DNA of 64,000 nucleotides from an uncultured virus (IMG/VR IMGVR_UViG_3300043773_000315) (lineage: Duplodnaviria; Heunggongvirae; Uroviricota; Caudoviricetes). A model generated the notes under the pieces. The model was not told where the DNA came from. It saw only the letters and a program-made list of their open reading frames with translations, and did no database searches. Location of the stretch: IMG/VR virus record IMGVR_UViG_3300043773_000315, one strand, 5' to 3'. A program made the translations under genes and the position numbers. Positions 4,890 to 46,009 of this stretch are shown here, one piece after another. How positions within the stretch are numbered: the first letter of the stretch is position 1; every line of letters begins with the position of its first letter.

Positions 4890-7800
4890 TTATTCTTCGC
4901 AATTCCAACGTCTAAGCGACATAGCCTTACGAGTTGGTCTGCCCTTTTCGTCTTTCATTGGGCCTTTCATGCCGCCCATTCTAGCACAGAATGACTTACG
5001 GCGTTTCCAAGCTTTACCGCCTTTTTTAAGTTTTGATGGAGGTGTAGTAACCGCTGTCTTGATACCAAAGTGCTTTGCGCCTTTTCTTGTTAGTCCAGCA
5101 CCACTCTCGGTTGATCTGTATAGACCTTTTGAGTCTGCGCCGCGCTCATTTAACTGTTCTTCACTCTTACGCTGTGTTGGAATAGGACTCATATTATTGA
5201 CTCCGCCTTCCATTCCTTCACGAAGTTTCTTCACTGATTTCTTTTCTTCGCTGTGTTCACATCCGCAACCTGCATTCTCTAGTTTTAATGCCGTCTCTAC
5301 CAACTTTTCTTCCCACAAATCGCCATATTTTTCCATATACTTTTGCTGAGTTGATTCCTTTGACATCCAGTTCTGAATGCTCTCGGATAGACCCATTGAA
5401 TATGCTGAACCGTAACCGAATCCGTATGGTGTGCCTGCACGAGGAACACCGATGGTTGGGCCGATACCATCAGCGCCGAAGGCATATCCACCCTGCACAG
5501 ATGCTTCCATGGCCTCTTGCTTCAACTTGTCTGCACTACGCATTAGTTCTTCTTTTGCTTTCTTAGCTTCTTCGGCATTCTTTTCAAGATGTGGTAAAGC
5601 CTTTACCATTTTCTGCCAAGGAGTTTTCTTCTTTGATTCGGCCACGAAACTTTCAAATGCTTCGTTGACAGGTACACAGTTAGGTACCATGCGATTACCT
5701 TTCTTCTTCATGCCCTTTTGCTCATAACCATCCCAGCATGTATCCTTTTCTTCGTTGACAGATGTCCAACCACCACCCTTAGACTTATACCACTTTGCTG
5801 CCCAACCATTAGCATATGCAGATGGATATACATCAAACTTTTTTCTGGCCATAGACTTAGCTCTTGACCATAGTTCTGGATTTGTTGGCTTGTTCTTTTC
5901 CATCAAAACTTGTTCTGACATTCTGTCACGGTTAATCTTGTCAATTGCTTTTTGAACTGACTCTGTTTTGACCATAATAGGTTTATTGCCTTTACCTGAT
6001 CTATCTGCCACGGGATCCTCTCTTCTTTTTCTTCTTGCTGATGCAGCGCGTTCTTTTTTACTCATCGAATATGCTCTAGATGCCGGCATACATTTTGGTT
6101 TACCTTCACCTGGCTCTCTAGCACAATCGCCTTTAATGTTACCTTTTGTATCAACTCTTTTCCAGTTGCCCTCTGGATGTGTTTTACTAAACCAATTTCT
6201 TAAATCTTCACTCAACTGAACCTTTACTAGTTTACCGCCTTGACTGTGGAATAATACTTTGTTTATACCATTAACTTTACGACCAAATCTACCAAAACCA
6301 TAATATGACAAACCAAGTCTTCTGGCCTGATTCATCAAATCATTATCTGGCTTGTGAATAACACTTGGCATTTCGACATTCTGTCTAATCTGAGTAAGTG
6401 TCTTATATCTCTTTGGCTCTTGATATCCTGTGATACCACGATTTCTTGCTTCGCGTTCAATCCATTTTGCTGCTGCTGGATTTTGATTTTCAGAGCGAAC
6501 AAACTGTTGAGCCATACGACGAATACGATTGAAGTTGGCCTGAATCTTTTCTTTTTCTTCTGGTCCAACTTTGCGAACATCTGCTGTGTTATCGATGACA
6601 GCAAATTTTTCATTACCAAAAATCTTTTGCAGTTCGCCAATATTCTTTTGTGCTAAGTCCCATTTCTGCTGACGAATGTTTGGAGAATTATCTGGCACGC
6701 CTTGCTTATCTGTACCATCTGGAACTTTACGCTTGCCCATCTTACCGCGTTCAACGTTACGCTCACGCGATACTTCATTAGAAGTGTTTACGAATACCAT
6801 CATGGTTTCGTAGCCGTCTGCTTCCAAGTTTTGTTTGATTGTCTTGATTTTTTCTAAGTCATCTGCTGTGCCGTTGATGATGAGTCCAAGACGACCTGCA
6901 AGGGCTAGACGCTCTTGTTCTTTTGTAATGTTCTTCGCGCGGCCGCGCACGATGTCGCGCTCAACTCTTTCTTCATCCGGCATCTCAAGGTCTAGACCGT
7001 TCTTCTGCATTAGATACTCAAATGCAACGTCAGAATTGATTTCTTTCAATCCTTCACCAGCAAGAGTGGAATTCATTACGTAGTCTTTACCAGAACCTGG
7101 ACCACCAGCCAGAAAGATAGCCTTGAGTTTGCCTGGATCGTTTATACCCTCGCTAAGTTGACCACGAACAGCCTTGAATCCCTTGACTGCTTTCTTTTGA
7201 TATTCACTTGATCCTTTTTTGTCTAGCCAATATCTGTCAATACCATCGTCATACCAAAGACCAGATGTTTGATTTGTTATAACGTATTGTGACACACCAG
7301 TCGGTGATACTTCACCTGTCACATTACCTAGTCCGCGAATACCACCGCCAATTGCTGCTGTGTTTGTTTCGACAACATAAGACTTGCCGAACATATCTGG
7401 ATTGGCCTTAGCAAACCAACGCATAATCTTACCTGCTTCTGAGTTTGCTTCGTTCTCAATATCAGAACCAGTTGCGCCTTCTTTCTCTATATCTTTACCT
7501 AACCGACCATCTTCGTTCTGTTTGTGATGCACAAGTTCATGAGCAACAGAACGGAATATGTCCATCGGATGTCTGTTCATAGTAGATATAGACAGTTCAT
7601 TAGACGATGGATTATATGCTGCGAATGAATTGTATGAATCATCATCTGTCTTGTATCTAACAGTCGGCATAGATTTTAGACCAAGCTTATCGGATGCAAA
7701 TGACACAAATGAATCCAGCATAGGTGCTAGTTCTTTGCGTGTAATTTCTTCTTTTAATTGCTTTAATGTTTTTGGTTTTGGAAGTTTAGCGGATAATAGT

Positions 7801-8369
7801 TTATGCACAGATGCATCATATTTGCCAAACAAATCTTTGACAAACTCTTTCTGCTTTGCGTTGTCTAATGATACAAACTGCTTACGAAGTTCAGAAGCAG
7901 ATGTGGCTGGCTTACCTAGAACATCGAATGTAAATGTAGGAGTGACGATAACATAACCCTTAGGCATAGATGCATCACCAAAAGGCTGCAACTTCTTTTC
8001 ATTGCCTGCATATGGTTGGAGATAACTTGGATTACCAGATTTGGTTGGTTTGAATGAAAAACGAGGATCTTCTTCCATGTCTTTTTGCGACACAGCAAAG
8101 ACTAAAACCGTCGTCTTAGGATCGTAGTCTTTTAGTATTTCTCTGGCGATGTAGGGATTGGTAACTTGCTTGATACTGTTAGATGGGACACCAGCCAGTG
8201 TCATCATCTTGACTTTTTCTTTGAAATTGAATGGACTCTTAGGTAGTTCTACTTTATCAGATGTGGCAATGACTGCATCGCCGAACTTTGACTTGAGCCA
8301 TTTATAGACCTGTGCATGGCCTTTATGGAAGGGTTGAAAACGCCCTGGATATACTACTAAAACTTTCAT
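4890..8369 (-). CDS. Multi-domain protein: cytidylyltransferase-like + HExxH + P-loop (zeta-toxin-like) kinase + small basic phage domains
   Basis: YPGRFQPFHKGH (HxGH), HELVH, LAGGPGSGKD Walker A, YPSAYANGWAAKWYKSKGGGW, CWDGY...VPNCVP, RRKSFCARM...LRRWNC. Confidence 0.75.
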   Translation of the reverse strand: MKVLVVYPGRFQPFHKGHAQVYKWLKSKFGDAVIATSDKVELPKSPFNFKEKVKMMTLAGVPSNSIKQVTNPYIAREILKDYDPKTTVLVFAVSQKDMEEDPRFSFKPTKSGNPSYLQPYAGNEKKLQPFGDASMPKGYVIVTPTFTFDVLGKPATSASELRKQFVSLDNAKQKEFVKDLFGKYDASVHKLLSAKLPKPKTLKQLKEEITRKELAPMLDSFVSFASDKLGLKSMPTVRYKTDDDSYNSFAAYNPSSNELSISTMNRHPMDIFRSVAHELVHHKQNEDGRLGKDIEKEGATGSDIENEANSEAGKIMRWFAKANPDMFGKSYVVETNTAAIGGGIRGLGNVTGEVSPTGVSQYVITNQTSGLWYDDGIDRYWLDKKGSSEYQKKAVKGFKAVRGQLSEGINDPGKLKAIFLAGGPGSGKDYVMNSTLAGEGLKEINSDVAFEYLMQKNGLDLEMPDEERVERDIVRGRAKNITKEQERLALAGRLGLIINGTADDLEKIKTIKQNLEADGYETMMVFVNTSNEVSRERNVERGKMGKRKVPDGTDKQGVPDNSPNIRQQKWDLAQKNIGELQKIFGNEKFAVIDNTADVRKVGPEEKEKIQANFNRIRRMAQQFVRSENQNPAAAKWIEREARNRGITGYQEPKRYKTLTQIRQNVEMPSVIHKPDNDLMNQARRLGLSYYGFGRFGRKVNGINKVLFHSQGGKLVKVQLSEDLRNWFSKTHPEGNWKRVDTKGNIKGDCAREPGEGKPKCMPASRAYSMSKKERAASARRKRREDPVADRSGKGNKPIMVKTESVQKAIDKINRDRMSEQVLMEKNKPTNPELWSRAKSMARKKFDVYPSAYANGWAAKWYKSKGGGWTSVNEEKDTCWDGYEQKGMKKKGNRMVPNCVPVNEAFESFVAESKKKTPWQKMVKALPHLEKNAEEAKKAKEELMRSADKLKQEAMEASVQGGYAFGADGIGPTIGVPRAGTPYGFGYGSAYSMGLSESIQNWMSKESTQQKYMEKYGDLWEEKLVETALKLENAGCGCEHSEEKKSVKKLREGMEGGVNNMSPIPTQRKSEEQLNERGADSKGLYRSTESGAGLTRKGAKHFGIKTAVTTPPSKLKKGGKAWKRRKSFCARMGGMKGPMKDEKGRPTRKAMSLRRWNCEE

Positions 8370-11980: not shown

Positions 11981-12036
11981 AACAAGTCTCCAAAAATTGA
12001 TTATATATAACTATGTATATCATCATGGAGTACATA

Positions 12037-13311
12037 ATGTCTGATAAAATCTTTGTGCAAATTGCTGCCTATCGTGATCCAGAACTTCTTCCAACAATCC
12101 GAGATTGTATTAAACGGGCTGATAATCCAGAAGACCTTGTGTTTGCCATTGCTTGGCAACGGGCTAAGGAAGATACCTGGGACACTTTGGAAGAATATAA
12201 AAACGATTCACGATTTAAGATCATCGAAATTGATTATAAAGAAGCACAAGGTACCTGTTGGGCTAGACATCTTTTAAATGAAGCGTATGACGGCGAAAAA
12301 TATACGTTGCAGTTAGACAGTCATCATAGATTTGTTCGTGGATGGGATACCAAGTGTAAGAAGATGATGTTAGATTTGATAGAAGAAGGATACTCAAAGC
12401 CTCTTCTCACAGCATATGTTCCTTCGTATGATCCAGACAATGATCCTGCCTCGAGAGCAAAGGAAGTTTGGAAACTTACTTTTGATAGATTTACACCAGA
12501 AGGTGTGGTGTTTATGCTTCCTACTGGAGTAGATGACATTGACATTTACAAGTTACCTATTCCTACTAGATTCTTTTCTGCTCATTTTATGTTCACTTTT
12601 GGACAATTTATCAAAGATGTGCCTTACGATCCAAATTTATACTTTCACGGTGAAGAGATTACGATGGCAGTTCGTGCTTATACGCACGGATACGATCTGT
12701 TTATTCCCAATGAGATTATTTGTTGGCACGAATATACTAGAAAAAAGCGTGTTCGCCACTGGGATGAAAAAGATAATGGATGGGAAAAAAGAAATGATGC
12801 TTCTCTAAAGAGATCAAAACAACTTCTACAAGTTGATGGCGATAAAGCAAACTATGATTTTGGTATATATGGTTTTGGCACAGAAAGAACGAAACAAGAT
12901 TATGAAGAATATGCTGGAATAAGATTTGAAGATAGAGCAGTGCAGCAATATACTCTAGAACATTATGATCCACCAAATCCTATCTACAGAAACGAGATTG
13001 CTCGTCAAAAGTCTTATAAAAACATTTTCAAACATTGTCTAGATGTATGGAAAGAATCAATTACAGAAACAGACTGTGATTTTTGGGTTGTTGCATTTAA
13101 AGACGAAAAAGATAACGACATGTATAGAGAAGACGCTAACAAATACGAAATTGAAAATATTGTTAATAATCCAGAAACTCTTGATGGCGACTTCTACAAT
13201 ATTTGGAGACAGTTTGACACAAAAAAGAGACCGCACAAATGGATTGTATGGCCTCATAGTGCGAGTAAAGGATGGTTAGATCCTATAGAAAATACTATTC
13301 CTGATATTTAA
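12037..13311 (+). CDS. Glycosyltransferase of the Skp1-hydroxyproline GlcNAc-transferase (GT60-like) family
   Basis: IFVQIAAYRDPEL, GTCWAR, LQLDSHHRF, PYDPNLYFHGEE, WHEY motifs; GGAG RBS before ATG 12037. Confidence 0.8.
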   Translation: MSDKIFVQIAAYRDPELLPTIRDCIKRADNPEDLVFAIAWQRAKEDTWDTLEEYKNDSRFKIIEIDYKEAQGTCWARHLLNEAYDGEKYTLQLDSHHRFVRGWDTKCKKMMLDLIEEGYSKPLLTAYVPSYDPDNDPASRAKEVWKLTFDRFTPEGVVFMLPTGVDDIDIYKLPIPTRFFSAHFMFTFGQFIKDVPYDPNLYFHGEEITMAVRAYTHGYDLFIPNEIICWHEYTRKKRVRHWDEKDNGWEKRNDASLKRSKQLLQVDGDKANYDFGIYGFGTERTKQDYEEYAGIRFEDRAVQQYTLEHYDPPNPIYRNEIARQKSYKNIFKHCLDVWKESITETDCDFWVVAFKDEKDNDMYREDANKYEIENIVNNPETLDGDFYNIWRQFDTKKRPHKWIVWPHSASKGWLDPIENTIPDI

Positions 13312-13751
13312 GACTTCATACCAGCAGTAGCACGAAGCATCCAACCGTGCTTCTTGTGAATGTCCATACGGTCTTGCAGAAAGTTGGCCAAACCTAGTTC
13401 GCCTTCTTTATCTGCAAGATCGTATGCTTGTTTGAGTGCATCAAGGATGATATTATTATCATTGATTAGAATCTGAAACATTCTTTCTGCTGTCGGAATG
13501 GTATCAGATTCCTCAATTCTTGTAAGTTCCTTGATTCTGTCTAATGAACTGGGAGCGAAAGAGTTCACAGCGCGGATCTGTTCTGCAATCGTGTCCACTG
13601 CACCATGCAATTCTTCGTATAGATTGCCAAAGAAAGCATGATACTCAGAAAAATTTGGACCAATTACGTTCCAGTGAAAAGAGTGCGTCTTTAGATACAT
13701 AGTGAATGTATCGGCCAAAACAATCTTTAATACGTTATGAAGTTCTTCCAT
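13308..13751 (-). CDS. dps: Dps ferritin-like DNA-protection protein
   Basis: KTHSFHWNVIG, H..F...YEE, D.IAEQIR, HKKHGWML. Confidence 0.92.
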   Translation of the reverse strand: MEELHNVLKIVLADTFTMYLKTHSFHWNVIGPNFSEYHAFFGNLYEELHGAVDTIAEQIRAVNSFAPSSLDRIKELTRIEESDTIPTAERMFQILINDNNIILDALKQAYDLADKEGELGLANFLQDRMDIHKKHGWMLRATAGMKS

Positions 13752-13782
13752 TTTATTCTCCCATAAGTGATACGATTATTTA

Positions 13783-14124
13783 TTAACCTACCACCTTAAT
13801 CTCCACTTTACAAACGCCATGACAACCTATTGCGCGGGCTGCGGCTCTTGATAGATCAATCGTACGGCCCTTAATAAACGGACCGCGGTCATTGATTCTA
13901 ACGATAACAGATTTACCTTTATATGTGACACGAACTTTTGTGCCGAACGGTAATGTTCTATGTGCTGCTGTCAGTGCATTAGGATTAAACTTCTCGCCAT
14001 TGGCGGTTCTTTTACTCTTACTGCACTGTCCAGGTGTTGCACAGTCATACCATGAAGCAATTGTTGCTTCGGCCGGGCTGATGAATAACATCAATCCAAC
14101 CAATAAAGTTACTAATGATTTCAT
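13783..14124 (-). CDS. rlpA: RlpA-family lytic transglycosylase (DPBB domain) with signal peptide
   Basis: [37 protein letters not shown]. Confidence 0.9.
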
Positions 14125-14134
14125 ATATGGTTCC

Positions 14135-14803
14135 TTATCCTATTTTGAACGTGATCTTGGAATTATCCTTAATCACGAAAGGCTTGAGTGCCTCCTTTTC
14201 TAAGACAACCATACTGTTATAGAACGAAACGGAGTACAGATTGTGAAATGTCTTTAGCACAGTTTCATCAATCTTGTTTTGAAAATGCTGTTGATTCACA
14301 ACGTCAGTTATAGTCTGTGAGTAAGAAAGAAAAGACGAATCTTTTCTAAACTCTCCACCCCATTTTGGCCAGTAACTCGTATGTGTGTCTTCGCAAATAT
14401 AAACTCCGCCCTCCCGTAAATGCGGAAATGTTTGTTGAAGTGTAATGATTTGATGGTGCATGACATGGCTACCATCATCAATGATGATATCAAAGTCGTT
14501 GTGTTCTGACATTAAACTTTCCCAGAACTCAATCGAACCTTGATCTCCCATAACAACTGTCGCATCACCATCATATTTGTATTGTAGACATCTTGGATCA
14601 ATGTCTACGCCTATGACTTTAGTTCCTTCTCCGAAGTATTTAAGCCATAATTCTATTGAACCGCCGCCAAGAACACCAATCTCCAAAATCTTTGGTGCTT
14701 TGCCTACAAACTTGCCAAGATGCTTTTCATATACATCAAAGTATCCAGACCATTTTGTAGATGGCTTTTCGGTTTCATCAAAAAGTTTTTCAATCGTATT
14801 CAT
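14135..14803 (-). CDS. Class I SAM-dependent (sugar O-)methyltransferase
   Basis: [30 protein letters not shown]. Confidence 0.85.
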
Positions 14804-15998
14804 TATTTAGTCCCTCGCAATATACAAATGGGAAATATCTTAGAAACATGTCCTTGTTATCAGGTCTGAGTGTTTTAATCTTCTTGTGTATTTCATCATA
14901 AAAATTCCATGCAAGAGGAACAAATGCAACGTCTTGCTTTTCATTCTGTAAGACTTCTGAACCATATACAGGAACATGCATACCTGGTGTGTAGAGTCCC
15001 TGCTTCATAGGATTATCATCAACGATATAGTCAAGTTCAATCTTGGAAGCATTTAGCAGAGTATTACCTTTTGCTGGTGCACCATAGCCGATAACCTTCA
15101 TTGTCTTACGAAGGGCCTCGACATGAGAAGCAAACTCATTAATGACTTCCTTGCTGTTCTCGACATACTCTTTGTAGACATGTTCATCATACAGACCTTT
15201 AAGTTTTTCTTCTTCCATAAGAAGTTGAATGTAAGAAGGTCTTGCTTTAGTTTTTGAGATGATAAAGATATAACTTGTGCCATGAATTGGATGTCTTACA
15301 ACATCAATCAAGTTCAACTTTGCCCTCTTACACAGTTCATTCATTGAGCGAATGTTATAGAAAGAAAGATGTTCGTGATATATTGTGTCAAACTCCATAT
15401 TCACAATCATATCGGCCTGAGAAACTGTGATGTAGATATAACCATCGTCAGACACAACATTACTCATATTCTCTAGGAACTCTAGTTGATTATAGTTATG
15501 AGCAAAAGCATTCTGACAGATTACAGCACCAAAACCAGTTTTTGAATAATTCTTATCGAAATAACCACAATGAACATGATGATTGCGCGAACTAATTACA
15601 TGAAGATTGGTTGCAGGATCAACGCCGAAAGTCAGTGCACCATATCTTTTGAATGCATCAAGTTGTGAACCATCATTACAGCCAATATCTAATACTCGTT
15701 CAGCTTTATGATTTTCCATAACAAACTTTGCAAACCAATCAAAGTAATCCAACTGTGTCTTTGCGGTACCAGACACATACAGATAGTTCTTGAACAGCAA
15801 GTCAGGATTGACCTTGTGTGTCAACTGTACATGATAACAATCCTTACAATAGTTTGTTGCAAGAGGAAACTTGTCTTCTGAATCTTTCGGACTCTTTAGA
15901 AAAGAATTAGCAAGTGGTTGAACACCTAAGTCGAGTAAAGGTTTTAGATGTGTGCCACCACAAGCAATACACTCTTTGATTTCTACACAGTTTTCCAT
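14790..15998 (-). CDS. NDP-sugar C-methyltransferase with zinc-binding N-terminus
   Basis: CIACG...C..C, LDIGCNDG, FDTIYHEH, HG.S, GYGAPAKGNTLL, DDNPMKQGLYTPG, LAWNF. Confidence 0.88.
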   Translation of the reverse strand: MENCVEIKECIACGGTHLKPLLDLGVQPLANSFLKSPKDSEDKFPLATNYCKDCYHVQLTHKVNPDLLFKNYLYVSGTAKTQLDYFDWFAKFVMENHKAERVLDIGCNDGSQLDAFKRYGALTFGVDPATNLHVISSRNHHVHCGYFDKNYSKTGFGAVICQNAFAHNYNQLEFLENMSNVVSDDGYIYITVSQADMIVNMEFDTIYHEHLSFYNIRSMNELCKRAKLNLIDVVRHPIHGTSYIFIISKTKARPSYIQLLMEEEKLKGLYDEHVYKEYVENSKEVINEFASHVEALRKTMKVIGYGAPAKGNTLLNASKIELDYIVDDNPMKQGLYTPGMHVPVYGSEVLQNEKQDVAFVPLAWNFYDEIHKKIKTLRPDNKDMFLRYFPFVYCEGLNNEYD

Positions 15999-15999
15999 C

Positions 16000-17025
16000 T
16001 TACATTCCTAACCATTTGGTGTTATTTACATACCAATCAGATACCTCTTTAATTCTATCACTAAGAGCCACGCGAGGTTCCCAGCCGAGAGAACGCATAA
16101 GATCACCGGATAAAGCATAACGTAAGTCATGCCCTGGTCTGGATGTATGGAAGTCAACCATTTCATATTTTAGTTCCTTACCTTGAGCAGACGCAATCAT
16201 CTTAGCTAGAGACAGATTGTCCACTTCTTCTTTGCCAACGATATTAAACTTGCGACACTTTGCCATGCCATAATCAGGTTCAAGTTGTGGATTGTTCTGC
16301 AAAAGGAACAGCAGAGCATCAGCCACATCACGCGCATGTACGTAGAAGCGCGAACCAGCCTTTGTCTTTGTTGCATCAGCATGGATTGTTACAGTCTCAT
16401 CATGCAAGACCTTCTTGATGCAAAGTGGAATAAACTTTTCGGGTGTTTGACGTTCACCAAACACATTCATTGTGTGAGTGATCATCATGGGCATCTTGTA
16501 TGTGTTTTCATACGCAACACACAGTTCTTCTGCTCCAGCCTTCGATGCGGAGTATGGATTGGTCGAGTTATATCGATCACGTTCCTTGTAAGCGACACCA
16601 GGAGGTGCAACACCAAAGATTTCATCGGTGCTGAAATACAGAAACATTTCTAGATGATCCAACTTGCGGGCATACTCTAGCAGATTGGCCGTGCCCATGA
16701 TGTTGTCTGTGATAAACTCAAGAGGATGTGTGATAGACCTATCTACGTGTGATGCTGCGGCTAAGTGAAGAATGATATCTACCTTGCCAATAAAGTTTTG
16801 CACAAGAGGATTCAGTTCAGCCTTCAAATCATGAAAGACTGTTCTAACTCGCTTTTGTGTTTCGTAGGGATATGGATCAATAACTTCGTGTAGACGATTA
16901 AGATTTCCAGAATAGTCAAGACGATCCAGTGTAATGATATTCCAATCTGTCTTTTGCAGAAACAAGTCCACAACATGATGTGCAATAAAGCCTGCACCGC
17001 CTGTAATTAATACCGTTTTACTCAT
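16000..17025 (-). CDS. rfbB: dTDP-glucose 4,6-dehydratase
   Basis: LITGGAGFI, HLAAASHVDRSI, STDE, PYSASK, RPGHDLRYA. Confidence 0.88.
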   Translation of the reverse strand: MSKTVLITGGAGFIAHHVVDLFLQKTDWNIITLDRLDYSGNLNRLHEVIDPYPYETQKRVRTVFHDLKAELNPLVQNFIGKVDIILHLAAASHVDRSITHPLEFITDNIMGTANLLEYARKLDHLEMFLYFSTDEIFGVAPPGVAYKERDRYNSTNPYSASKAGAEELCVAYENTYKMPMMITHTMNVFGERQTPEKFIPLCIKKVLHDETVTIHADATKTKAGSRFYVHARDVADALLFLLQNNPQLEPDYGMAKCRKFNIVGKEEVDNLSLAKMIASAQGKELKYEMVDFHTSRPGHDLRYALSGDLMRSLGWEPRVALSDRIKEVSDWYVNNTKWLGM

Positions 17026-17707
17026 CAATGTAATCTCCACTTGGTGCTATATTACCACATACACCAATTTTGTCAAGTTCAATCGTCTTATATGTATGCA
17101 AGTTTTTATAGTAAGAATGCTCAACATCTATTCCATATGTTGCACAATCTTGAAGTATCTTTGAAAGATTTAATTGAAATGTATCTAGAAGATTGTAGTC
17201 CATGTGCCAACAGCGAAGACGGAATAGTTTATGCGCTCCAATACTATCTTGTCTATGCTTTGGCATCCATGAATCAAGAGCGGTCGCAAATACAAACGCA
17301 TCCTTGAAGTCTTCTCTATCAACAATGAAGTTGTCGTTCAGTCTGTAACGACCAGAGAGTTTATAGATGCGTTTTGATTTGAAGTCTTGCTTTTGAAACC
17401 AATTGAGGAAATACAGAAACGTGATGCATTCTGCGATGCTTCGCTGGCCCAACTGAGAAAATCTCTTAACGTCTGGCTCGTCACCAGTATAAAAGATAAT
17501 TACGCCTCTATTGCTAAGTTCCTGGAAGTATTCTACATTGGGACGTTCTGGAGAAGAATCGAAGATGAATACTTGATTATTTGGGCAATACTTGTTGATG
17601 GAATCAAGAGTTTCAACAGTCTGCTTGAAACGTTCTTCTTCATTATAGATAGAAAGTTGATTGACTTTCAGTGCATGATTAACAAAAAATATTCCATCAT
17701 ATATCAT
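17018..17707 (-). CDS. Hypothetical protein (glycan-island associated)
   Basis: ERFKQTVETL.SI and IYKLSGRY motifs; 229-aa ORF. Confidence 0.6.
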   Translation of the reverse strand: MIYDGIFFVNHALKVNQLSIYNEEERFKQTVETLDSINKYCPNNQVFIFDSSPERPNVEYFQELSNRGVIIFYTGDEPDVKRFSQLGQRSIAECITFLYFLNWFQKQDFKSKRIYKLSGRYRLNDNFIVDREDFKDAFVFATALDSWMPKHRQDSIGAHKLFRLRCWHMDYNLLDTFQLNLSKILQDCATYGIDVEHSYYKNLHTYKTIELDKIGVCGNIAPSGDYIDE

Positions 17708-25363: not shown

Positions 25364-25438
25364 TGGTAGAGCATACGGGAGTCGAACCCGTCTCTCATCC
25401 TTGAAAGGGATGTGACCTAACCGATAGTCGAATGCTCC
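25364..25438 (-). tRNA. tRNA-Glu(UUC)
   Basis: CATCC-CTTTCAA-GGATG; CCA. Confidence 0.9.
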
Positions 25439-25447
25439 ATTAATAGT

Positions 25448-25527
25448 TTGTCAATCGTATAGGATTTGCACCTATGTTTCATCCGACTCCGCAGATGTTT
25501 CCTAACTTCTAGAAGAACGATTAACAA
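25448..25527 (-). ncRNA. tRNA-like element, copy 1
   Basis: Cloverleaf-like, non-canonical anticodon loop, no CCA; 68-nt core identical to 26783-26850. Confidence 0.65.
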
Positions 25528-25529
25528 TA

Positions 25530-25604
25530 TGGAGAACCCTCTGGGATTCGAACCCAGGACAGACGGATTAAAAGCCCGCTACTCTACCACTGAGTTAAGG
25601 GTTC
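25530..25604 (-). tRNA. tRNA-Lys(UUU)
   Basis: GCGGG-CTTTTAA-TCCGT; CCA. Confidence 0.92.
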
Positions 25605-25607
25605 AAT

Positions 25608-25681
25608 TGGCTGGGAGACTAGGATTCGAACCTAGATAGTTGGAATCAAAATCCAACGTCCTGCCGTTAGACGATCTCCCA
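25608..25681 (-). tRNA. tRNA-Gln(UUG)
   Basis: TTGGA-TTTTGAT-TCCAA; GCCA. Confidence 0.92.
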
Positions 25682-25715
25682 ATAATTGGTGCCTAGTCCG
25701 GAACTAGGACTTAAA

Positions 25716-25789
25716 TGGTTGGCCAGTAGAGAATCGAACTCTCATCGGACGCCTATCAAGCGCCTGCTTTACCATTAAGCTACAAGCCA
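25716..25789 (-). tRNA. tRNA-Ile(GAU)
   Basis: GGCGC-TTGATAG-GCGTC; some stem mismatches; CCA. Confidence 0.82.
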
Positions 25790-25795
25790 TTGAAT

Positions 25796-25957
25796 TGCAC
25801 CGCATCATGATATCCTCATGTCTCCTGGTCAAGCGGGTGACCTCCCCTCAGACTTGCGACTAACACCGCTCAAAGTGTTAGTTAGAGGGCGTGGTGGAAA
25901 ACAAAAACTCCATGTTGAGTACATTTCAGCGTTTTTGTTAACGGTACCACGGCGCAC
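25796..25957 (-). ncRNA. Putative structured ncRNA (multi-stem, possible kissing loop)
   Basis: Stems AACAAAAAC/GTTTTTGTT, CGTGGT/ACCACG, CCCTC/GAGGG, ACTAACAC/GTGTTAGT, GGTCA/TGACC. Confidence 0.55.
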
Positions 25958-25959
25958 TT

Positions 25960-26045
25960 TGGTGGGTGAGGTAGGATTCGAACCTACTAAGTACTAGACA
26001 GGGGATTTACAGTCCGCCGCAACTCGCCATCGTTGCCGCTCACCC
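25960..26045 (-). tRNA. tRNA-Tyr(GUA)
   Basis: Loop CT-GTA-AA; long variable arm; CCA. Confidence 0.9.
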
Positions 26046-26052
26046 GAAACTT

Positions 26053-26159
26053 GTTGAGCCTCACGCTGCTTGGCTCAACTCATCTGTAACTTCTCGACTC
26101 ATTCGCAGTAGCGTAGCTCCGCACTCAAACGTACGGCACCCTGCGCGATGGTGACAGAT
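26053..26159 (-). ncRNA. Putative structured ncRNA (pseudoknot)
   Basis: ATCTGTCAC/GTTACAGAT, CGCAG/CTGCG, CCGTAC/GTGCGG, GTTGAGCC/GGCTCAAC; loop AGCGT complementary to ACGCT. Confidence 0.55.
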
Positions 26160-26165
26160 TGAATA

Positions 26166-26240
26166 TGGTGGACCCTAAGAGAATCGAACTCTTACCCTCG
26201 CCGTGCAAAGGCGATGTGCTCCCATTATCACTAAGGGCCC
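26166..26240 (-). tRNA. tRNA-Ala(UGC)
   Basis: TCGCC-TTTGCAC-GGCGA; G3.U70. Confidence 0.93.
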
Positions 26241-26245
26241 TATTA

Positions 26246-26366
26246 ATAGCTCCTGTCACTATCGCAGTCAGGCAAACGGTTACTTATTTAACGGTCTCTC
26301 TTTAATCGGCCGAAGAGAGAAAATCATTCAGTAACACCCTAGTTTATTTCAACCGTAAAGGGCATG
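26246..26366 (-). ncRNA. Putative structured ncRNA
   Basis: GCCCT/AGGGT, GTTACT/AGTAAC, TCTCTCTT/AAGAGAGA, CCTG/CAGG stems. Confidence 0.45.
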
Positions 26367-26376
26367 TTTCTTGAAT

Positions 26377-26450
26377 TGGCACCAGTGCAAGGATTCGAAC
26401 CCTGACAAACGGTTTTGGAGACCGCTGTGCTACCGTTACACCACACTGAT
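26377..26450 (-). tRNA. tRNA-Trp(CCA)
   Basis: GCGGT-CTCCAAA-ACCGT; GCCA. Confidence 0.92.
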
Positions 26451-26452
26451 AT

Positions 26453-26680
26453 TGGCGACCCATTCCCCGACTTTTCGTATGCTGGACTTTCACTCTATTA
26501 CTTGCCATAGAGATTAACCAGTTCTGTGCCACATTTCATTGGCTGCTACTACTAGCGGATCAAGACAGGTCATAATTACGAATGAGGAAAGAAGCAGCAT
26601 CAAAACTACGCCTACTGTTTCTTTTACACCAAATACTGGGCACTTTTGGGTGTGCTACATCGCAGTATTCGATAACCTCA
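26453..26680 (-). ncRNA. Putative structured ncRNA(s); 3' domain ends in CCA
   Basis: TGAGG/CCTCA domain with ATCGAATACTG/CAGTATTTGGT; second domain TGACC/GGTCG-CCA enclosing three hairpins. Confidence 0.55.
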
Positions 26681-26684
26681 ATAT

Positions 26685-26761
26685 TGGTCGGAGTACTAGG
26701 ATTCGAACCCAGGACCCTCTGCTCCCAAAGCAGATGCGCTACCAGACTGCGCTACACTCCG
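26685..26761 (-). tRNA. tRNA-Pro(UGG)
   Basis: CGGAGTGTAGCGCAG start; TCTGC-TTTGGGA-GCAGA. Confidence 0.94.
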
Positions 26762-26778
26762 TTATAATTTATATAGTA

Positions 26779-26854
26779 TGTTATCGTATAGGATTTGCAC
26801 CTATGTTTCATCCGACTCCGCAGATGTTTCCTAACTTCTAGAAGAACGATAACA
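26779..26854 (-). ncRNA. tRNA-like element, copy 2
   Basis: 68-nt core identical to 25454-25521; different but still paired terminal stem. Confidence 0.65.
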
Positions 26855-26858
26855 ATCT

Positions 26859-26932
26859 TGGCGACCTATGCGAGACTCAAACTCGCTACACCTCTTAGAC
26901 AGAGAGGTATGATATCCATTCACTAATAGGCC
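26859..26932 (-). tRNA. tRNA-Asp(GUC)
   Basis: CCTCT-CTGTCTA-AGAGG; GCCA. Confidence 0.87.
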
Positions 26933-26941
26933 ATGTTAGGA

Positions 26942-27020
26942 TAGTGAGTGCTAACGGCGTATCTAAATCACACATGACGCATCAACGCCGTATTGCCTGT
27001 ATGATTGAAGTCACTCACTA
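26942..27020 (-). ncRNA. Putative compact pseudoknotted ncRNA
   Basis: TAGTGAGTG/CACTCACTA, ACGGCGT/ACGCCGT; AATCATACA complementary to loop TGTGTGATT. Confidence 0.6.
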
Positions 27021-27022
27021 AT

Positions 27023-27097: not shown

Positions 27098-27102
27098 AAA
27101 TT

Positions 27103-27305
27103 TGGAGTGGGCTAACGACAACATTCTGGATGTTCCCGCTTGTCTTATCGGCGTATCCCCACTCAATACGCTGGAGTCAGTCTTTACTAACACGTAGCTA
27201 CACGACTGACAGCGTTCTACGAATAGGCTTCACGGCGAAGATCGGTCACAGTATGCATCCTGCCGACTCGTTACTTTAATCGCGCAAACTCTAACGAACC
27301 GTGAA
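27103..27305 (-). ncRNA. Putative structured ncRNA ending in CCA with a possible 3' pseudoknot
   Basis: TTCACGG/CCGTGAA domain; TCAGTC/GACTGA; GCGTATT/GATACGC hairpin whose loop GAGTGGG matches the 3' CCCACTC(CA). Confidence 0.55.
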
Positions 27306-27385: not shown

Positions 27386-27513
27386 TTCTATACTTTCAGA
27401 TATGCACCGACGGTTTCGAAGCCGTCCACCTTGAACGCCCCATACGGAGCGCGGCTGTGACCTACACATGAGCGGTAGCTACAACGCCCTGGTGCATATC
27501 TGAAAATATAGAA
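27386..27513 (-). ncRNA. Long-stem ncRNA with a T-arm-like hairpin
   Basis: 23-bp terminal inverted repeat (27386-27408 / 27491-27513) with one G.U on the minus strand; GACGG-CTTCGAAA-CCGTC next to the stem. Confidence 0.65.
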
Positions 27514-27514
27514 C

Positions 27515-27674
27515 TCTCTTTTCGTCAGCGGTTGAAGTAGATGATGAGATTTTGCAACTCATACTGGATCTCCGATTCGTTCGTCAGAGGAACTACTAAG
27601 AATCACCGTTCTACTATTAAACTACATCTACTGATTCATCTTGGCCGAGACTATCAACCACTGACGAAAAGAGA
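27515..27674 (-). ncRNA. Long-stem multibranch ncRNA
   Basis: 21-bp terminal inverted repeat (27515-27535 / 27654-27674), inner AGTAGATG/CATCTACT, three apical hairpins. Confidence 0.65.
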
Positions 27675-27831
27675 ATTATGTGAGGCTACGCCGAATCGTA
27701 GTAATCTCACCGGTGTTTCGTCATTCGGTACGCTCAGTTTTAAAAAACTAAGAAAAAGGAACTTAACAATGTAAATCAGCGGTGCTGCTTATCCTGCAGC
27801 TAGGAAACTCTTTCAATCAACTTACAAACAC

Positions 27832-27860
27832 AATATAGCAGTTCAGAACCAGGAAGTCAA
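27832..27860 (-). promoter_or_regulatory. Sigma70-type promoter for the tRNA/ncRNA operon
   Basis: TTGACT-17nt-TATATT with an A-rich UP-like tract. Confidence 0.8.
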
Positions 27861-28106: not shown

Positions 28107-28733
28107 TTATTCTCTAACTTTTCTAATTCTTTTTTCGTCGCCTAGATTTGCTCTTCCATCGTATGCCAAATCTGCGTTTGGACCATTTGCATCAACGTAG
28201 TGCAAAAATACTTGTGCTTGCCATCTGCCTGTATATTTTTCTCTCCAGTGCCAGAGATCCATTCCTCTGTAAAGAACAGCACCGCCCACTTCGATTATCT
28301 GTCTATGAACATCTGTGTGTTTATCAGTTTTAGAAAAAAAGAAAGGCCAGATAGATGACTTTTTATCGTGACCTAAAGTTATTGTGGCTGATATTTCGCA
28401 ACTAGGGCGATCTTTGTGTATATTTAAAACTTCATTTTTATTGTAGAGTCTGGCATACGTATACGTTGGAAGTAGCGATATATTGATAAGAGATGATATC
28501 TTTGATCGATTTAGATCAAGAAACTTATCTAAAAGGGATTCTCCATATATACTACCTGAAAGAGTACACTGTTTATCTGGTTTTAATCTTCCTTCATTTT
28601 TCAAGGAAAGAAGATGATTCGTGAGCATTTCACACTCATACTTGTCCACAAGATTAGGAACATATGCCCAGCCATGTTTTGCAAAATGCTGCTCTACATT
28701 TAGACAGGATTCTCTTTTATCTAAATTTTCCAT
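28107..28733 (-). CDS. 2OG-Fe(II) oxygenase
   Basis: PTYTYARLY, HKDRPSCEIS.T, HWRE, QVFLHYVD; TATAAATA at 28752-28759 upstream. Confidence 0.8.
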   Translation of the reverse strand: MENLDKRESCLNVEQHFAKHGWAYVPNLVDKYECEMLTNHLLSLKNEGRLKPDKQCTLSGSIYGESLLDKFLDLNRSKISSLINISLLPTYTYARLYNKNEVLNIHKDRPSCEISATITLGHDKKSSIWPFFFSKTDKHTDVHRQIIEVGGAVLYRGMDLWHWREKYTGRWQAQVFLHYVDANGPNADLAYDGRANLGDEKRIRKVRE

Positions 28734-42205: not shown

Positions 42206-44557
42206 TCAAGACTCTTTTCTGTCCTCAGCCGCATAAAAATCAAAACGATGATGGAAAATAGGACTTAATGCTAACACTGCCGCTCTTATTTTTCCTTGCT
42301 TCTGTAATTGAAATATGTGGCTCATCCATGTATGTTCATTAGGATAAGCCCATTTAGTATCAAGAAAAACTTTCTTATTACCTTGTCTAGAGAACCAGAG
42401 TGGCCAGTTGCAATAATAAAATTCTCCTTCAAAGTATTTCAAGTCTTTATATCTTTTCTCACAAAATATTTCCGTTTTTGGTGGATCAGAATCTAGACCC
42501 TCTTCTGGAAGTTTTGTTTTTTCAGGAAAATATTTTTCTCTTACATCTCGAGGAATATTATACCATGCCCATTGAGTTTCATTTGTTCCATAAAATTCTG
42601 AGTAGGACAATTTTAGATAATCATATCTGTTCCTATGCATTATTTCCAAAGATTTTAGATAGAGATTATCAACGTGTCTTTTAAATCCTGAATCACACAG
42701 TTCTTCTGTTGAACCATGAATTGTCATATCATCTTCTAAAAAGATATAGTATTCAGAATCACTCTCATTAAAATGTTCCGCAACAAACTGTCTGGCACCA
42801 CTAATACCAAGATTTATTTCTTTTTTTATGTGTTCAAACTTATGAGTTTTACACAAACTATTGTACTTCTCATAAGTTGACGAATCTGTAGAATTATCGA
42901 TTAGTATCTTTCGTGTTCTGTCTAGAAAATCTGATTCACCGTGCCTATACGATTCTATAAGAGTTTCGAATTGCTCTGGACTATTATATGTTAGAACATA
43001 TAAAGATGTCTTTAATTCTTCGGCAGTCTTCTTTTTGTTCCAAAGTATTAGTTCTGAATTTGGAACAGAATATTCTTCAACTTCACTTAACATTTCAAAG
43101 AAAGGATAAACAAGACCATTATCAGACAATTCAAATCTATGAGTATCATTTGGATTATGATATGTTAACATAGTGTGAAAGTTTTCTTCTGTTCCCATAT
43201 ATCCTGATTTGAGCGTGTCTGATGCTAAGTTATAATATTCACCATTAAGTTTTTTTACTCTATCTTTGTGTCCACCGAAGAATCCTCCGCGACAAACATA
43301 TTCCGTTTTGTCTACACCACAAAACTCAGCGAATTTTGAACTTTCAAATCCATGAACTTCATTATCGTTTTCGTATGGAAAAGAGAGAAACAGAAATTTA
43401 TTCTTTATCTTCTTCATATAGTTTTCTATAGAAGAAAGATTTTTTAGCATATTTAAGTCTACTGTATTTGTTAAACCGGCGTCTATCCAAAAAAAGTAGT
43501 CTGTTTTAAATTCATTTCTAACCGAACAGTCGTGTAAGAAAAAGAATTTAGACATAACAATAGGATTGTAATATTCTAGTTTAGCTTGTGGAGAATTTTC
43601 TAACCAAGACGCCCTTTTATACCAATTTTCATCTTTTCTTATGTCTTGCACAATATCAAAGAAGTCAAAATTATTTTTAATATCTTCAAGATCATAAACA
43701 ATTATTGTTGTGTTTTTGTTAGAGCGATGAGTGTCTACAAATGTTGTCAATTCTTTTGGCACATAAACACACATATTAAAGTCGAGACTTAACAATTTGC
43801 TAAAGTTATCTAGATAGTGATCGAATGAACGGTTAAAATCTTTCAGTTCACCTCTTCTAATATCCCATAGTCCAGTTACCAGAGTAAAGTTTGATTTATC
43901 TGTTGAAATATTATTTCGCTTTGGAGTTAAATTTTTTTTAGGTTTTACTGAGTAGTTGTTTCCTTTTTTTGTTTTACAAACCCAAACAATAGACTGAAAC
44001 TCTTCATCCATAAATCCTTCAAGTTGATTTTTTTTGGATGCCTCAGCAATATCATCTTCTACTATTTCACACCAGTTCCAAATTTTTCCGTTGATATTTT
44101 CTTCAAAAAACTCGCGTGATTTCGAATAGTCGTGGGCCATAATGAAGTCGCCAGGTTTAAGATAGTCTGATATTACATTAAACTCTGCAACTTTATAGCC
44201 GCCGTCACACAAAACTAATGTTGTTCCGGAACTCTGAATGAAAGATATTACATCTGTGACATCTCTTAACTTATAATCGTCTGTAAATATATTCTCGATT
44301 CTCAGATCGATTCCTGTTTCAATAATTTTAGAGTAAACACTTCTTCCAGAAATGTCATATGTTCTGATCTCGCACGGTTTATTCAAACTCAGCATAATAT
44401 CGTTCAACGCGAGAATAGTACCGCCACCAGCAGTTCCTATTTCTAATATTCTATCTGGTTTAATTTCTCTTAGAAATTTTTCAAATACAGAATAAAAATT
44501 ATCGTGTTGCATAGCGACAAGGTCTTTGTACACTATGTATCCAGTCATTTCAGTCAT
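42206..44557 (-). CDS. Fusion protein: SAM methyltransferase + HtrL-like GT + GT2-like domain
   Basis: LEIGTAGGG/CDGG/AHDY; TLVTGLWDI, FWIDAG, RGGFFGG, MGTEE; IDNS, FLEDD. Confidence 0.75.
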   Translation of the reverse strand: MTEMTGYIVYKDLVAMQHDNFYSVFEKFLREIKPDRILEIGTAGGGTILALNDIMLSLNKPCEIRTYDISGRSVYSKIIETGIDLRIENIFTDDYKLRDVTDVISFIQSSGTTLVLCDGGYKVAEFNVISDYLKPGDFIMAHDYSKSREFFEENINGKIWNWCEIVEDDIAEASKKNQLEGFMDEEFQSIVWVCKTKKGNNYSVKPKKNLTPKRNNISTDKSNFTLVTGLWDIRRGELKDFNRSFDHYLDNFSKLLSLDFNMCVYVPKELTTFVDTHRSNKNTTIIVYDLEDIKNNFDFFDIVQDIRKDENWYKRASWLENSPQAKLEYYNPIVMSKFFFLHDCSVRNEFKTDYFFWIDAGLTNTVDLNMLKNLSSIENYMKKIKNKFLFLSFPYENDNEVHGFESSKFAEFCGVDKTEYVCRGGFFGGHKDRVKKLNGEYYNLASDTLKSGYMGTEENFHTMLTYHNPNDTHRFELSDNGLVYPFFEMLSEVEEYSVPNSELILWNKKKTAEELKTSLYVLTYNSPEQFETLIESYRHGESDFLDRTRKILIDNSTDSSTYEKYNSLCKTHKFEHIKKEINLGISGARQFVAEHFNESDSEYYIFLEDDMTIHGSTEELCDSGFKRHVDNLYLKSLEIMHRNRYDYLKLSYSEFYGTNETQWAWYNIPRDVREKYFPEKTKLPEEGLDSDPPKTEIFCEKRYKDLKYFEGEFYYCNWPLWFSRQGNKKVFLDTKWAYPNEHTWMSHIFQLQKQGKIRAAVLALSPIFHHRFDFYAAEDRKES

Positions 44558-44568
44558 ATTTAAACTAT

Positions 44569-44775
44569 CTACCCCTGCCCGACGGCCTCACGTTTGGCCT
44601 TTGTGCGCGCCCTTGCGGCTTTGGCGATTTCGACTTTGCGTTCTCTGGTCGCATAAAGCCATTCTGTGATTTCTGACGCCGTACGGCCGCAGCCTCTGCA
44701 AGTCTTTTCTTCGTCTTCTCTATATGTTCTTTCACTGTCATATTCACACACCTTTGTACAGATTGAGTTTGTCAT
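44569..44775 (-). CDS. DUF1289-like Cys-rich protein
   Basis: SICTKVC...C.GCGRT..EI..W. Confidence 0.75.
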   Translation of the reverse strand: MTNSICTKVCEYDSERTYREDEEKTCRGCGRTASEITEWLYATRERKVEIAKAARARTKAKREAVGQG

Positions 44776-45641
44776 GTCTTCTCTACTAGATTTTTGATAG
44801 AAGTATAAAGTTGTCCTGGATCTACATACTTCTCAAATATATAGTTTGATTTCTTAGAAATACCCATCGTAAAACAGTCTGATTCCTGATGACCGAATGC
44901 GTAAAATGTCTTGTGAGGATCATTCAAGTTTTCACCAGTAGAAGCATAACAGAATGGACCAGAGTTGCGTCCAATTATAAGACTGCAAAACTTAGAAAGA
45001 TATGCAATCTCGTTTAGATCACATCTGTCAGACTGAATGATATCTCCAGTGTACATAACATTTGGCCAGATATTGTCTAGCTTATGAGTTGTAAGAAATA
45101 CCTTATTCTCATGCTGTGCTGCTAGAGGTCCGATAATCTCTCTCATATCACCATTATACTGACACTGACCCGACATAGCTGGTCCATTGCAGAATAATAT
45201 TTTTGGTCTTGGTTCGCTGTCAATAAAAGAACGAGCATGAGCCAAATCATACTTGCTATAGTCAATATAAGGCAAATAGTTTTCTACTGGACCAAGTTTC
45301 ATCTTCTTCTTAAATGTAGTATTGATATCTTCATAGATATCTGCCCACATCTTCATATTGAAGTTGAGTGTGCATTCTCCAGTATACTTGTCAAAATAAG
45401 AACCAATCCAAGTATTGACAAACAGTATGTCAGGATTTTTTGGTCTTAGTATCTTTACCTTATCTGATATTCCTTCAAGATGCACATGCTGCAATCCTAA
45501 ATCTTCGATTGCGCGAGGGTCTTTGTTGTGTGCATACATGACTTTCTCTTTGCCAAGATGCTTGATGACTTCACGAACAAATGGCTTGCTGTGGAACAAA
45601 TCACCATTATGATAGAAGTTGAAGAAGCAAAGTTTTGTCAC
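44772..45641 (-). CDS. Hypothetical protein, possible GT-B glycosyltransferase
   Basis: HNGD...S; IIGRNSGP. Confidence 0.55.
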   Translation of the reverse strand: MTKLCFFNFYHNGDLFHSKPFVREVIKHLGKEKVMYAHNKDPRAIEDLGLQHVHLEGISDKVKILRPKNPDILFVNTWIGSYFDKYTGECTLNFNMKMWADIYEDINTTFKKKMKLGPVENYLPYIDYSKYDLAHARSFIDSEPRPKILFCNGPAMSGQCQYNGDMREIIGPLAAQHENKVFLTTHKLDNIWPNVMYTGDIIQSDRCDLNEIAYLSKFCSLIIGRNSGPFCYASTGENLNDPHKTFYAFGHQESDCFTMGISKKSNYIFEKYVDPGQLYTSIKNLVEKT

Positions 45642-46009
45642 TTTTCTTTTACACCCTTGTATAATTTAACTGATTCTTCACGCAAAGACTTGTTGTGTAC
45701 AATAGCATCATCAATCATAGCATTCAATGCTGCAACTAACTTAGGGCGCTTGACCTTGAAGCAGATGTCGACCTTGCGCTTTAGGTCGGCCAGTTCTTCA
45801 TCTGACTTTGCAGCCTGCATAGCATCTTCAAGGTGCCAAGTGCGAATGTGAAGAATAGCCAACTTCTCTAGAACTTCACCGATGCTATCAGATGCGGCAT
45901 ATTCTGGAGGTGGATTAAAGTTTAATATCTGACGACCGAGAATGTCATACACATGCTCCTTCAAAATCATATCCAACATTTCAGAAACAATCTTATTGTT
46001 ATTCATCAC
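45638..46009 (-). CDS. DUF4254-like helical protein
   Basis: SIGEVLEKLAILHIRTWHLED. Confidence 0.6.
   Translation of the reverse strand: MMNNNKIVSEMLDMILKEHVYDILGRQILNFNPPPEYAASDSIGEVLEKLAILHIRTWHLEDAMQAAKSDEELADLKRKVDICFKVKRPKLVAALNAMIDDAIVHNKSLREESVKLYKGVKEK

Follow-up and report, generated by a model that had tools for sequence, protein, structure and literature searches.

A duplicated tRNA-like element in a phage tRNA array and the apparently uncatalogued RNA family, putatively derived from tRNA-Glu, to which it belongs

A DNA stretch of 64,000 nucleotides (nt) from the uncultured-virus record IMGVR_UViG_3300043773_000315, hereafter the window, carries inside an array of tRNA genes two copies of a tRNA-like element encoded on the minus strand. 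Comparison of both copies with relatives from other phages pointed to a real and selected RNA family, which is apparently uncatalogued and probably derived from tRNA-Glu. As judged from the sequences of its 17 distinct members, both working ends of the tRNA have been lost at the DNA level, the loop at the anticodon position is constrained and the fold is under selection.

Window copies, relatives and conserved fold

The copies and their parts are located as follows, R1 being the covariance model described below and bp base pairs.

25448..25527, minus strand: copy 1 of the tRNA-like RNA, 80 nt, with an 11-bp closing/acceptor stem, between tRNA-Lys(UUU) and tRNA-Glu(UUC); 97.8 bits with R1, of which it is a training sequence
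26779..26855, minus strand: copy 2 of the tRNA-like RNA, 77 nt, with a 9-bp closing/acceptor stem, between tRNA-Asp(GUC) and tRNA-Pro(UGG)
25454..25521, no strand given: 68-nt exact repeat unit, first copy
26783..26850, no strand given: 68-nt exact repeat unit, second copy
25499..25514 in copy 1 and 26828-26843 in copy 2, minus strand: D arm, with a UUCU/GGAA stem, U11-A24 and U13·G22, and A18-G19 in the loop
25480..25497 in copy 1 and 26809-26826 in copy 2, minus strand: anticodon-position arm, with a 6-bp stem and the CGGAGU hexaloop at 25486-25491 / 26815-26820
25459..25475 in copy 1 and 26788-26804 in copy 2, minus strand: T arm, with a UGCAAAU loop (G55, matching A18)

A previous examination of the letters alone (the sequence-only reading) had described a duplicated tRNA mimic with an identical core and separately maintained closing stems. 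The identity of the core is exact over its 68 nt, can be extended in neither direction and constitutes the longest exact direct repeat of the 98.5-kb record to which the window belongs, the runner-up having 24 nt. The sequence-only reading was likewise accurate on the CGGAGU hexaloop with its 6-bp stem, on the missing U33, on the TGCAAAT T loop and on the lack of CCA (the 3' ends are A-CAA in copy 1 and C-AUA in copy 2). Concerning the flanks, it was correct that each of them extends the acceptor-like stem, to 11 and 9 bp, albeit modestly; however, they are homologous and not independent, and what separates them is one inserted A-U pair, a change from U-A to U·G and a few outer changes. A Fisher test of the differences in core versus flanks was discarded, as the exact match itself defines the core and makes such a test circular. 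Moreover, an eighth acceptor pair is common in the ordinary tRNAs of these arrays (61/110).

Both the minimum-energy and the centroid folds of the minus strand were cloverleaves in copy 1 (-20.9 kcal/mol, z -2.43, 7/200 shuffles as good) and in copy 2 (-19.1 kcal/mol, z -2.48, 3/200 shuffles as good), and the plus strand of both folded worse. This single-sequence signal is modest, and the strong support for the fold is covariation. ARAGORN, which the sequence-only reading had proposed as a check, called neither window copy, and Rfam gave nothing on either of them at gathering thresholds or at E values up to 10, with no match to RF00005.

Nine pattern scans, eight on viral contigs and one on metagenome contigs, performed with patterns taken from a window copy and followed by inspection of each match, yielded 17 distinct family sequences, namely the two window copies and 15 others, the remaining matches being duplicates, ordinary tRNAs or chance. 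Contig L209 and other identical copies, the hybrid contig L215 and the doubtful elements of L160 (34.6 bits) and L185 (40.8 bits) were left out of the 17. The last two (L160 2991-3073 and L185 2985-3069, minus strand, in records of 333 kb and 525 kb) are CCA-less cloverleaves with the same D arm and other loops, possibly distant members or parallel inventions. Sixteen of the 17 members are situated within tRNA arrays or at their head, and the remaining one, L327, belongs to a 50-kb record without a match to the gp41-type helicase of the window, where it occupies a long stretch of non-coding DNA. The carriers are distant, with DNA polymerases of 47-60% identity in the 5 of 14 records holding the gene. 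The covariance model R1, constructed from the first 13 members, gave 90-104 bits to its training set and duplicates and 57 bits to the best true tRNA, and the four later members scored 104, 101, 74 and 54 bits.

A blastn search of the annotated phages with the 80-nt copy returned 59 records with short chance pieces only (the best of 29-35 nt), none covering 80% of the query, and a search with the 2.6-kb block matched tRNA genes only. Two pattern scans of cellular genomes gave 0 and 1 stretches, the single one being a chance match without a T arm. No member was present in the 80 loci around relatives of the open reading frame (ORF) at 28107-28733, where R1 matched only the L216 tRNA-Glu. ARAGORN and Rfam likewise called none of the members in L310, L327, L184, L156 and L307, and the only one that ARAGORN called was of the L150 type, as tRNA-Arg(GCG). 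No description of this family was found in the literature; an unnamed listing is possible in a survey of 10,000 candidates (PMC10690425, as far as its accessible part goes).

The sequence-only reading had proposed that the structure is under selection, and homologues with covariation were indeed found across distant phages. When the 17 sequences were parsed by structure, 372 of the 374 stem cells were paired, distributed among a 7-bp acceptor stem (118/119), the D stem (68/68), the anticodon-position stem (101/102) and a 5-bp T stem (85/85). In the alignment, two-sided changes were detected at 14 of 24 pairs and in all four helices, counts that are lowered by the automatic placement of the 3' half of L327, which is wrong and was replaced by structural parsing in the stem-cell count; the first 13 members were analysed likewise. 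None of 500 shuffles reached any of the covariation measures, and slid registers paired at 27-52%. The closing stem measures 8-11 bp in 15 members, that of L184 reaches 19 bp and that of L310 has 5 bp, and two or more extra acceptor pairs exist in 10/17 members, compared with two extra pairs in 5/110 control tRNAs.

These data bear on whether the element is a recently duplicated and decaying tRNA pseudogene or an assembly artefact, the outcomes that the sequence-only reading had set against itself. Contig L209 is 100% identical to the record over 2304 nt including both copies, and may have been assembled from the same reads. Each of the four repeat junctions is spanned by contigs in run X3, where the segment between the copies has a depth of 7.07, with 6.05-9.41 for the other listed pieces. 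The two-copy form with even depth thus argues against an artefact of assembly. In favour of one, contig L215 is a hybrid in which the 5' flank of copy 2 is joined to the 3' flank of copy 1 without the 1329 nt between the copies, its closing stem being broken (5 contiguous pairs). This contig reflects a jump in assembly or else a rare deletion, and it indicates that assemblers can jump across the repeat. A single-sequence fold z of only about -2.5 would also suit a pseudogene. However, a recently decayed tRNA is at odds with the covariation of all four helices among phages whose polymerases diverge so much, and with the absence from our scans of any homologue having the family body and a normal anticodon. 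We consider this explanation largely refuted and hardly tenable.

tRNA-Glu-type body and altered ends

The body of the element appears, from its sequence, to descend from a phage gene of tRNA-Glu type. The nearest tRNAs by alignment and model were Glu in most cases; Gln accounted for some and a phage Val(GAC) for one. U11-A24, U13·G22·A46 and a 4-nt variable loop without residue 47 are present in 17/17 members, a conservation that is partly built in because U13, G22 and A24 were in the search patterns. In the accessible part of PMC9976931, U11-A24, U13·G22·A46 and the lack of residue 47 form the core identity set of tRNA-Glu. Among the ARAGORN tRNAs compared, the Glu-type core was found in 14/28 Glu, 5/27 Gln and 9/423 others. 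In addition, most members and the tRNA-Glu(UUC) of the window have in common the pattern of the D loop, the CAUC/GAUG pairs of the anticodon stem, an AGAG variable loop and the unusual combination U15/G48, the window copies themselves having G15-C48. Of the 9 distinct carrier arrays that were mapped (L301 and L304, which repeat L297 and L303, were excluded), 7 also contain an intact tRNA-Glu(UUC), and therefore the element does not replace tRNA-Glu.

At the elbow, G19-C56 is present in 16/17 members and U54-A58 in 15/17, and positions 18/55 are A/G in 13, A/U in 2, G/U in 1 and U/U in 1. Among 478 tRNAs, a set biased by the search patterns, G55 was found in 79 of the 83 with an AG but no GG in the D loop, and U55 in 359 of the 368 with a GG D loop. 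As G55 accompanies AG D loops in real tRNAs, the odd T loop is not a sign of decay. L310 shows a switch back to G18/U55, and L327 has a degraded elbow, with a 9-nt T loop, and retains the D stem and loop. As a separate observation, odd T loops are combined with a Glu-type D arm in phage tRNAs of L145, L147, L157, L163, L166 and L168; ARAGORN misses some of these tRNAs, and two have a Glu-like body with a valine anticodon (GAC and CAC).

At the DNA level, both working ends of the element differ from those of ordinary tRNAs. CCA is encoded in 0/17 members versus 107/110 tRNAs of the same arrays, and positions 73-74 are paired in 10/17. The discriminator base is U in seven, A in six, C in two and G in two, and pairs 2-71 to 4-69 are variable, the window copies differing from each other at 1-72, 2-71, 3-70 and 73. 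U1 is present in 16/17, with U1-A72 in 14/17 and G1-C72 in 1/17; U1 is a tRNA-Gln-like trait, which is inseparable from A/U-rich stem ends. At the other end, no member has a 7-nt anticodon loop or U33 (17/17), and the anticodon determinants of glutamyl-tRNA synthetase (GluRS), U34, U35, C36 and A37, are absent from the members. These four residues and G1-C72 are listed as tRNA-Glu determinants in the available text of PMC9976931. In agreement with the sequence-only reading, the RNA is very probably non-decoding. That reading had not recognised the RNA as a paralogue of tRNA-Glu type, the conservation of the loop sequence or the incidental nature of the duplication.

It would be rather improbable that the element is instead an odd working tRNA, cut by RNase P at +1, trimmed of its trailer and provided with CCA, and either decoding or promoting +1 frameshifting with an 8-nt loop or acting as an amino-acid donor off the ribosome. 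The top half of 7+5 bp is perfect, A18/G55 is a variant of real tRNAs, ARAGORN called one member, a CCA-adding-type head domain is encoded in 1/5 carrier records, the frequent U1 and U1-A72 recall the tRNA-Gln mark (PMC9976931, same part) and yeast mitochondrial tRNA-Thr decodes with an 8-nt loop, according to the accessible part of PMC7609411. However, such a tRNA would have to work without U33 and the GluRS anticodon determinants, with a discriminator and pairs 2-4 that vary even between the window copies, and with a 3' end which lacks the CCA of its neighbours and is frequently paired at positions 73-74.

The loop which stands in place of the anticodon loop is formed by 6 nt on a 6-bp stem and is CGGAGU in 14 members, CAUGGU in 2 (L149 and L161) and CGGAAU in 1 (L150). 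Among the 13 members found without the loop in the pattern, CGGAGU was present in 10. It was found on four unrelated stems, that of L156 without loop selection in the search and those of L310 and L327 with it. If the loop is numbered from its 3' stem, the anticodon position is occupied by GAG (GAA in L150), both of which are glutamate codons. Anticodon-anticodon pairing between complementary tRNAs is established. The tRNA body might therefore be a stable scaffold showing the loop for RNA-RNA pairing, for instance by capping or sequestering the tRNA-Glu anticodon or as a GGAG Shine-Dalgarno-like bait, an explanation that we consider unlikely. The maintenance of the loop on four stems and the fact that its sole single-base variant turns GAG into GAA are in agreement with it. 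Nevertheless, one synonymous-looking change is weak evidence, L149 and L161 carry CAUGGU, just 3-4 base pairs are possible, and the six-base complement occurred without conserved context in 14 carrier regions, with 0-5 matches in each versus 0.2-2.3 expected. A pairing of the loop with the acceptor strand of tRNA-Pro was rejected, as it holds in the window only and is not conserved.

The GGA exposed in the hexaloop of 15/17 members could also make the element a sponge for proteins of CsrA/RsmA type, which bind GGA in hairpin loops. The CsrA consensus is ANGGA, and the A two bases before GGA is absent, since GGA is preceded by GC or UC. CsrB/RsmZ-type sponges have several ANGGA loops, unlike the element, with one loop GGA and no ANGGA. 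As each RNA has one site, the tRNA core would be unexplained and a CsrA gene was found in 0/5 carrier records, this function is highly improbable.

Candidate role, cassette turnover and known systems

The role that we tentatively favour, with a confidence somewhat below an even chance, is to engage, as a decoy or a competitive ligand, a host protein gripping the D-stem/anticodon face of tRNA-Glu/Gln-type tRNAs, a tRNA-cutting anti-phage nuclease, akin to the nuclease decoy that the sequence-only reading gave as an example, being the most plausible partner. As the unvarying parts lie on the D-stem/anticodon side and the elbow can be degraded, as in L327, a protein-binding decoy is favoured, directed at a factor that would read tRNA-Glu/Gln from that side. 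The element would be transcribed with the tRNA array and freed when the adjoining tRNAs are cut out; its paired ends would guard the RNA, which would have no charging or decoding role, and its purine-rich loop could be a bindable but non-cleavable stand-in for the U-rich anticodon loop. A second copy would add dose and would not be needed. A wider formulation, possible but doubtful, is that of an "anti-tRNA", an uncharged and uncleavable tRNA-Glu paralogue that would either jam a defence enzyme or cap the tRNA-Glu anticodon with a glutamate codon. If this were true, it would represent an RNA-only counter-defence by decoy or masking instead of tRNA resupply.

Several points weigh against the favoured explanation. 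The invariant D-stem core may be inherited structure and not a binding determinant. By our grouping the 17 sequences correspond to about 10-11 lineages, and their relatedness inflates the covariation counts; four of them (L307, L308, L310 and L327) were found with patterns demanding the hexaloop. In 12/13 loci the carriers resemble each other more closely in the element than in the median same-anticodon tRNA, a point in favour of the explanation, with a figure that is inflated because the patterns derive from the window copy. L310 has only 5 contiguous acceptor pairs and forms no cloverleaf when folded alone (z -0.08). In RNA run X15, related tRNA genes were seen and no listed piece lay over the element; these data are contigs only and prove nothing either way, the RNA runs X15-X20 sharing 0.05-0.16 of words. 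In the part of PMC11555353 available, altering the anticodon of a phage tRNA abolished the rescue from retron Eco7. Likewise, AriB recognises the anticodon loop (10.1101/2024.01.02.573894, accessible part), which is the very part that the element has replaced. In both of these published cases, as far as the same parts go, the counter-defence by phage tRNAs consists in the supply of functional tRNA (PMC11555353; 10.1101/2024.01.02.573894).

The number of copies changes among close relatives. L216, with 96-100% identity over the shared parts of the block and the same tRNA order, has neither copy. In a relative from run X12, copy 1 is unchanged and Pro is joined straight to Asp (joint 26767>26859), copy 2 being cleanly skipped. 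Run X10 contains copy 2 at a depth of 26.9 as well as a form lacking it at 11.4, and the slot of copy 1 is crossed there by a joint. The 13 other carrier records, most of them fragments, were searched whole and gave a single copy each. As relatives carry both copies, one or none, the element behaves as a whole-unit accessory cassette. The two-copy state is local and the duplication itself incidental.

This turnover would suit a structured passenger or punctuation cassette, spread by recombination between the flanking tRNA genes and selected for its fold only in order that the RNase P/E processing of its neighbours is left intact or helped, an alternative which we regard as quite unlikely. In its favour, presence and absence between tRNA genes are precise in relatives of 96-100% identity (L216, runs X10 and X12), and other spacers of the array are swapped too, one slot being occupied in L216 by a short ORF with, by look only, a nuclease-like zinc finger. 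However, a passenger would explain neither a fixed loop on changing stems nor an identity above that of working tRNAs, the neighbours already have their own processing signals and L327 is outside any tRNA array. Even as a passenger, the element would be a clean case of cassette turnover in phage tRNA arrays.

The tRNA array is a mosaic of accessory cassettes. In L216, the slot of copy 2 (7298-7748) is occupied by a self-closing RNA-like stretch and a short CxxC ORF, of homing/endonuclease VII type by look only. Four structured spacers of the window (25790-25959, 26046-26165, 26933-27022 and 27100-27230, minus strand) are missing or substituted in L216, and runs X10, X12 and X15 also skip or replace them in part.

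Comparison with known systems started from bacterial and phage tRNA-Glu(UUC) (RF00005), with which the element shares the 7/4/5(6)/5 cloverleaf and the Glu core, its D loop, anticodon stem and variable loop being closely similar to those of the tRNA-Glu genes of these phages. Unlike this tRNA, it lacks the UUC anticodon, U33 and encoded CCA, has G1-C72 in only 1/17 members and a variable discriminator, and its closing stem is of 8-19 bp in 16/17. RNA C and RNA D of T4, described in the accessible part of PMC3014915, are non-tRNA small RNA genes of unknown role inside a T4-like tRNA cluster; the likeness is one of position, the sequence search against annotated phages having given chance pieces of 29-35 nt at best. 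YrlA, a Y RNA bound by Ro60/Rsr, is non-charged, as the element would be, has D and T arms capable of tRNA tertiary contacts and is present in phages, and has a permuted, loop-capped acceptor stem, the GNCGAA motif and an adjacent Ro60 gene, as stated in the available part of PMC4201824. By contrast, the element has the normal arm order of tRNAs, and GNCGAA was absent from the aligned members by inspection. A TROVE (Ro60) gene was found in 0 of 11 records (10 carriers and the non-carrier L216; 10 fragments and 1 complete), the control being positive in 2 of 14 genomes.

Irregular cloverleaves and longer acceptor stems are also found in allo-tRNAs and in irregular non-translating tRNAs, some of which are translation-inactive and lie near toxin-antitoxin genes (Mukai et al., PMC5389517, accessible part). 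However, the branch of allo-tRNAs is 8/4 or 9/3 and their variable arm long, according to the same text, whereas the element has a 5-bp T stem (85/85 cells), a 4-nt variable loop in 17/17 and no anticodon loop. Finally, the cleavage-resistant phage tRNAs, such as T5 tRNA-Lys versus PARIS and tRNA-Tyr versus retron Eco7, are also tRNA-array genes with an altered anticodon arm. In the parts of PMC11555353 and 10.1101/2024.01.02.573894 available, these tRNAs are functional and rescue translation, whereas the element is without the parts needed to translate.

The family offers a compact (about 80 nt), covariation-backed tRNA paralogue in which the body has been kept and both working ends replaced, and which standard annotation misses. 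It would indicate that tRNA arrays hold functional genes skipped by tRNA finders, and the decoy idea becomes directly testable with one synthetic RNA and loop mutants.

The tRNA array, its phage and other candidate RNAs

The 98.5-kb record belongs to a T4-like phage from a lake, with gp43 polymerase, gp41 helicase, UvsX, clamp and clamp loader, RegA and gp23, and its best polymerase matches among annotated phages were cyanophages, at about 50% identity. ARAGORN identified 30 tRNA genes in the phage array, every one on the minus strand. The features around the two copies are the following.

25364..25438, minus strand: tRNA-Glu(UUC), intact and with CCA, the closest kin of the element within the window; 51.6 bits with R1
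25530..25604, minus strand: tRNA-Lys(UUU) by ARAGORN, upstream neighbour of copy 1
26685..26761, minus strand: tRNA-Pro(UGG) by ARAGORN, downstream neighbour of copy 2
26859..26932, minus strand: tRNA-Asp(GUC) by ARAGORN, upstream neighbour of copy 2
27832..27860, minus strand: best sigma-70-like promoter match (10/12, extended -10; consensus match only), upstream of this array block and candidate start of a polycistron

Sigma-70-like promoter matches numbered 8, with 6.8 expected in shuffles. The tRNA array is flanked by two large blocks (12013-17707 and 42206-54052) of sugar-nucleotide, glycosyltransferase and methyltransferase genes. Another gene of the window (4890-8369, minus strand) encodes a 1159-amino-acid protein with cytidylyltransferase-like and zeta-toxin/AAA_33-type kinase domains and DUF6321, and adjoins a polynucleotide-kinase-like gene.

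Other candidate RNAs were observed in the spacers of the array. A 128-nt RNA-like spacer (27386-27513, minus strand), present in L216 and without an Rfam match, has a 23-bp closing stem, internal hairpins, a T-arm-like hairpin and a z of -8.3. Directly upstream there is a second long-stemmed spacer (27512-27677, minus strand), with 24-nt inverted arms that are 92% complementary and also present in L216. The spacer between tRNA-Trp and tRNA-Ala (26241-26376, minus strand) has 76-78% identical homologues in the arrays of L152, L159, L169 and L199, which carry the element too, and is a second candidate RNA family. Furthermore, L125-L129 and L134 contain a different tRNA-like element (e.g. L125 2991-3071, minus strand), with an 8-bp acceptor stem, encoded CCA, a UGCAAAU T loop and a weak anticodon arm; it has no ARAGORN tRNA nearby, and its acceptor pairs covary between L125 and L127.

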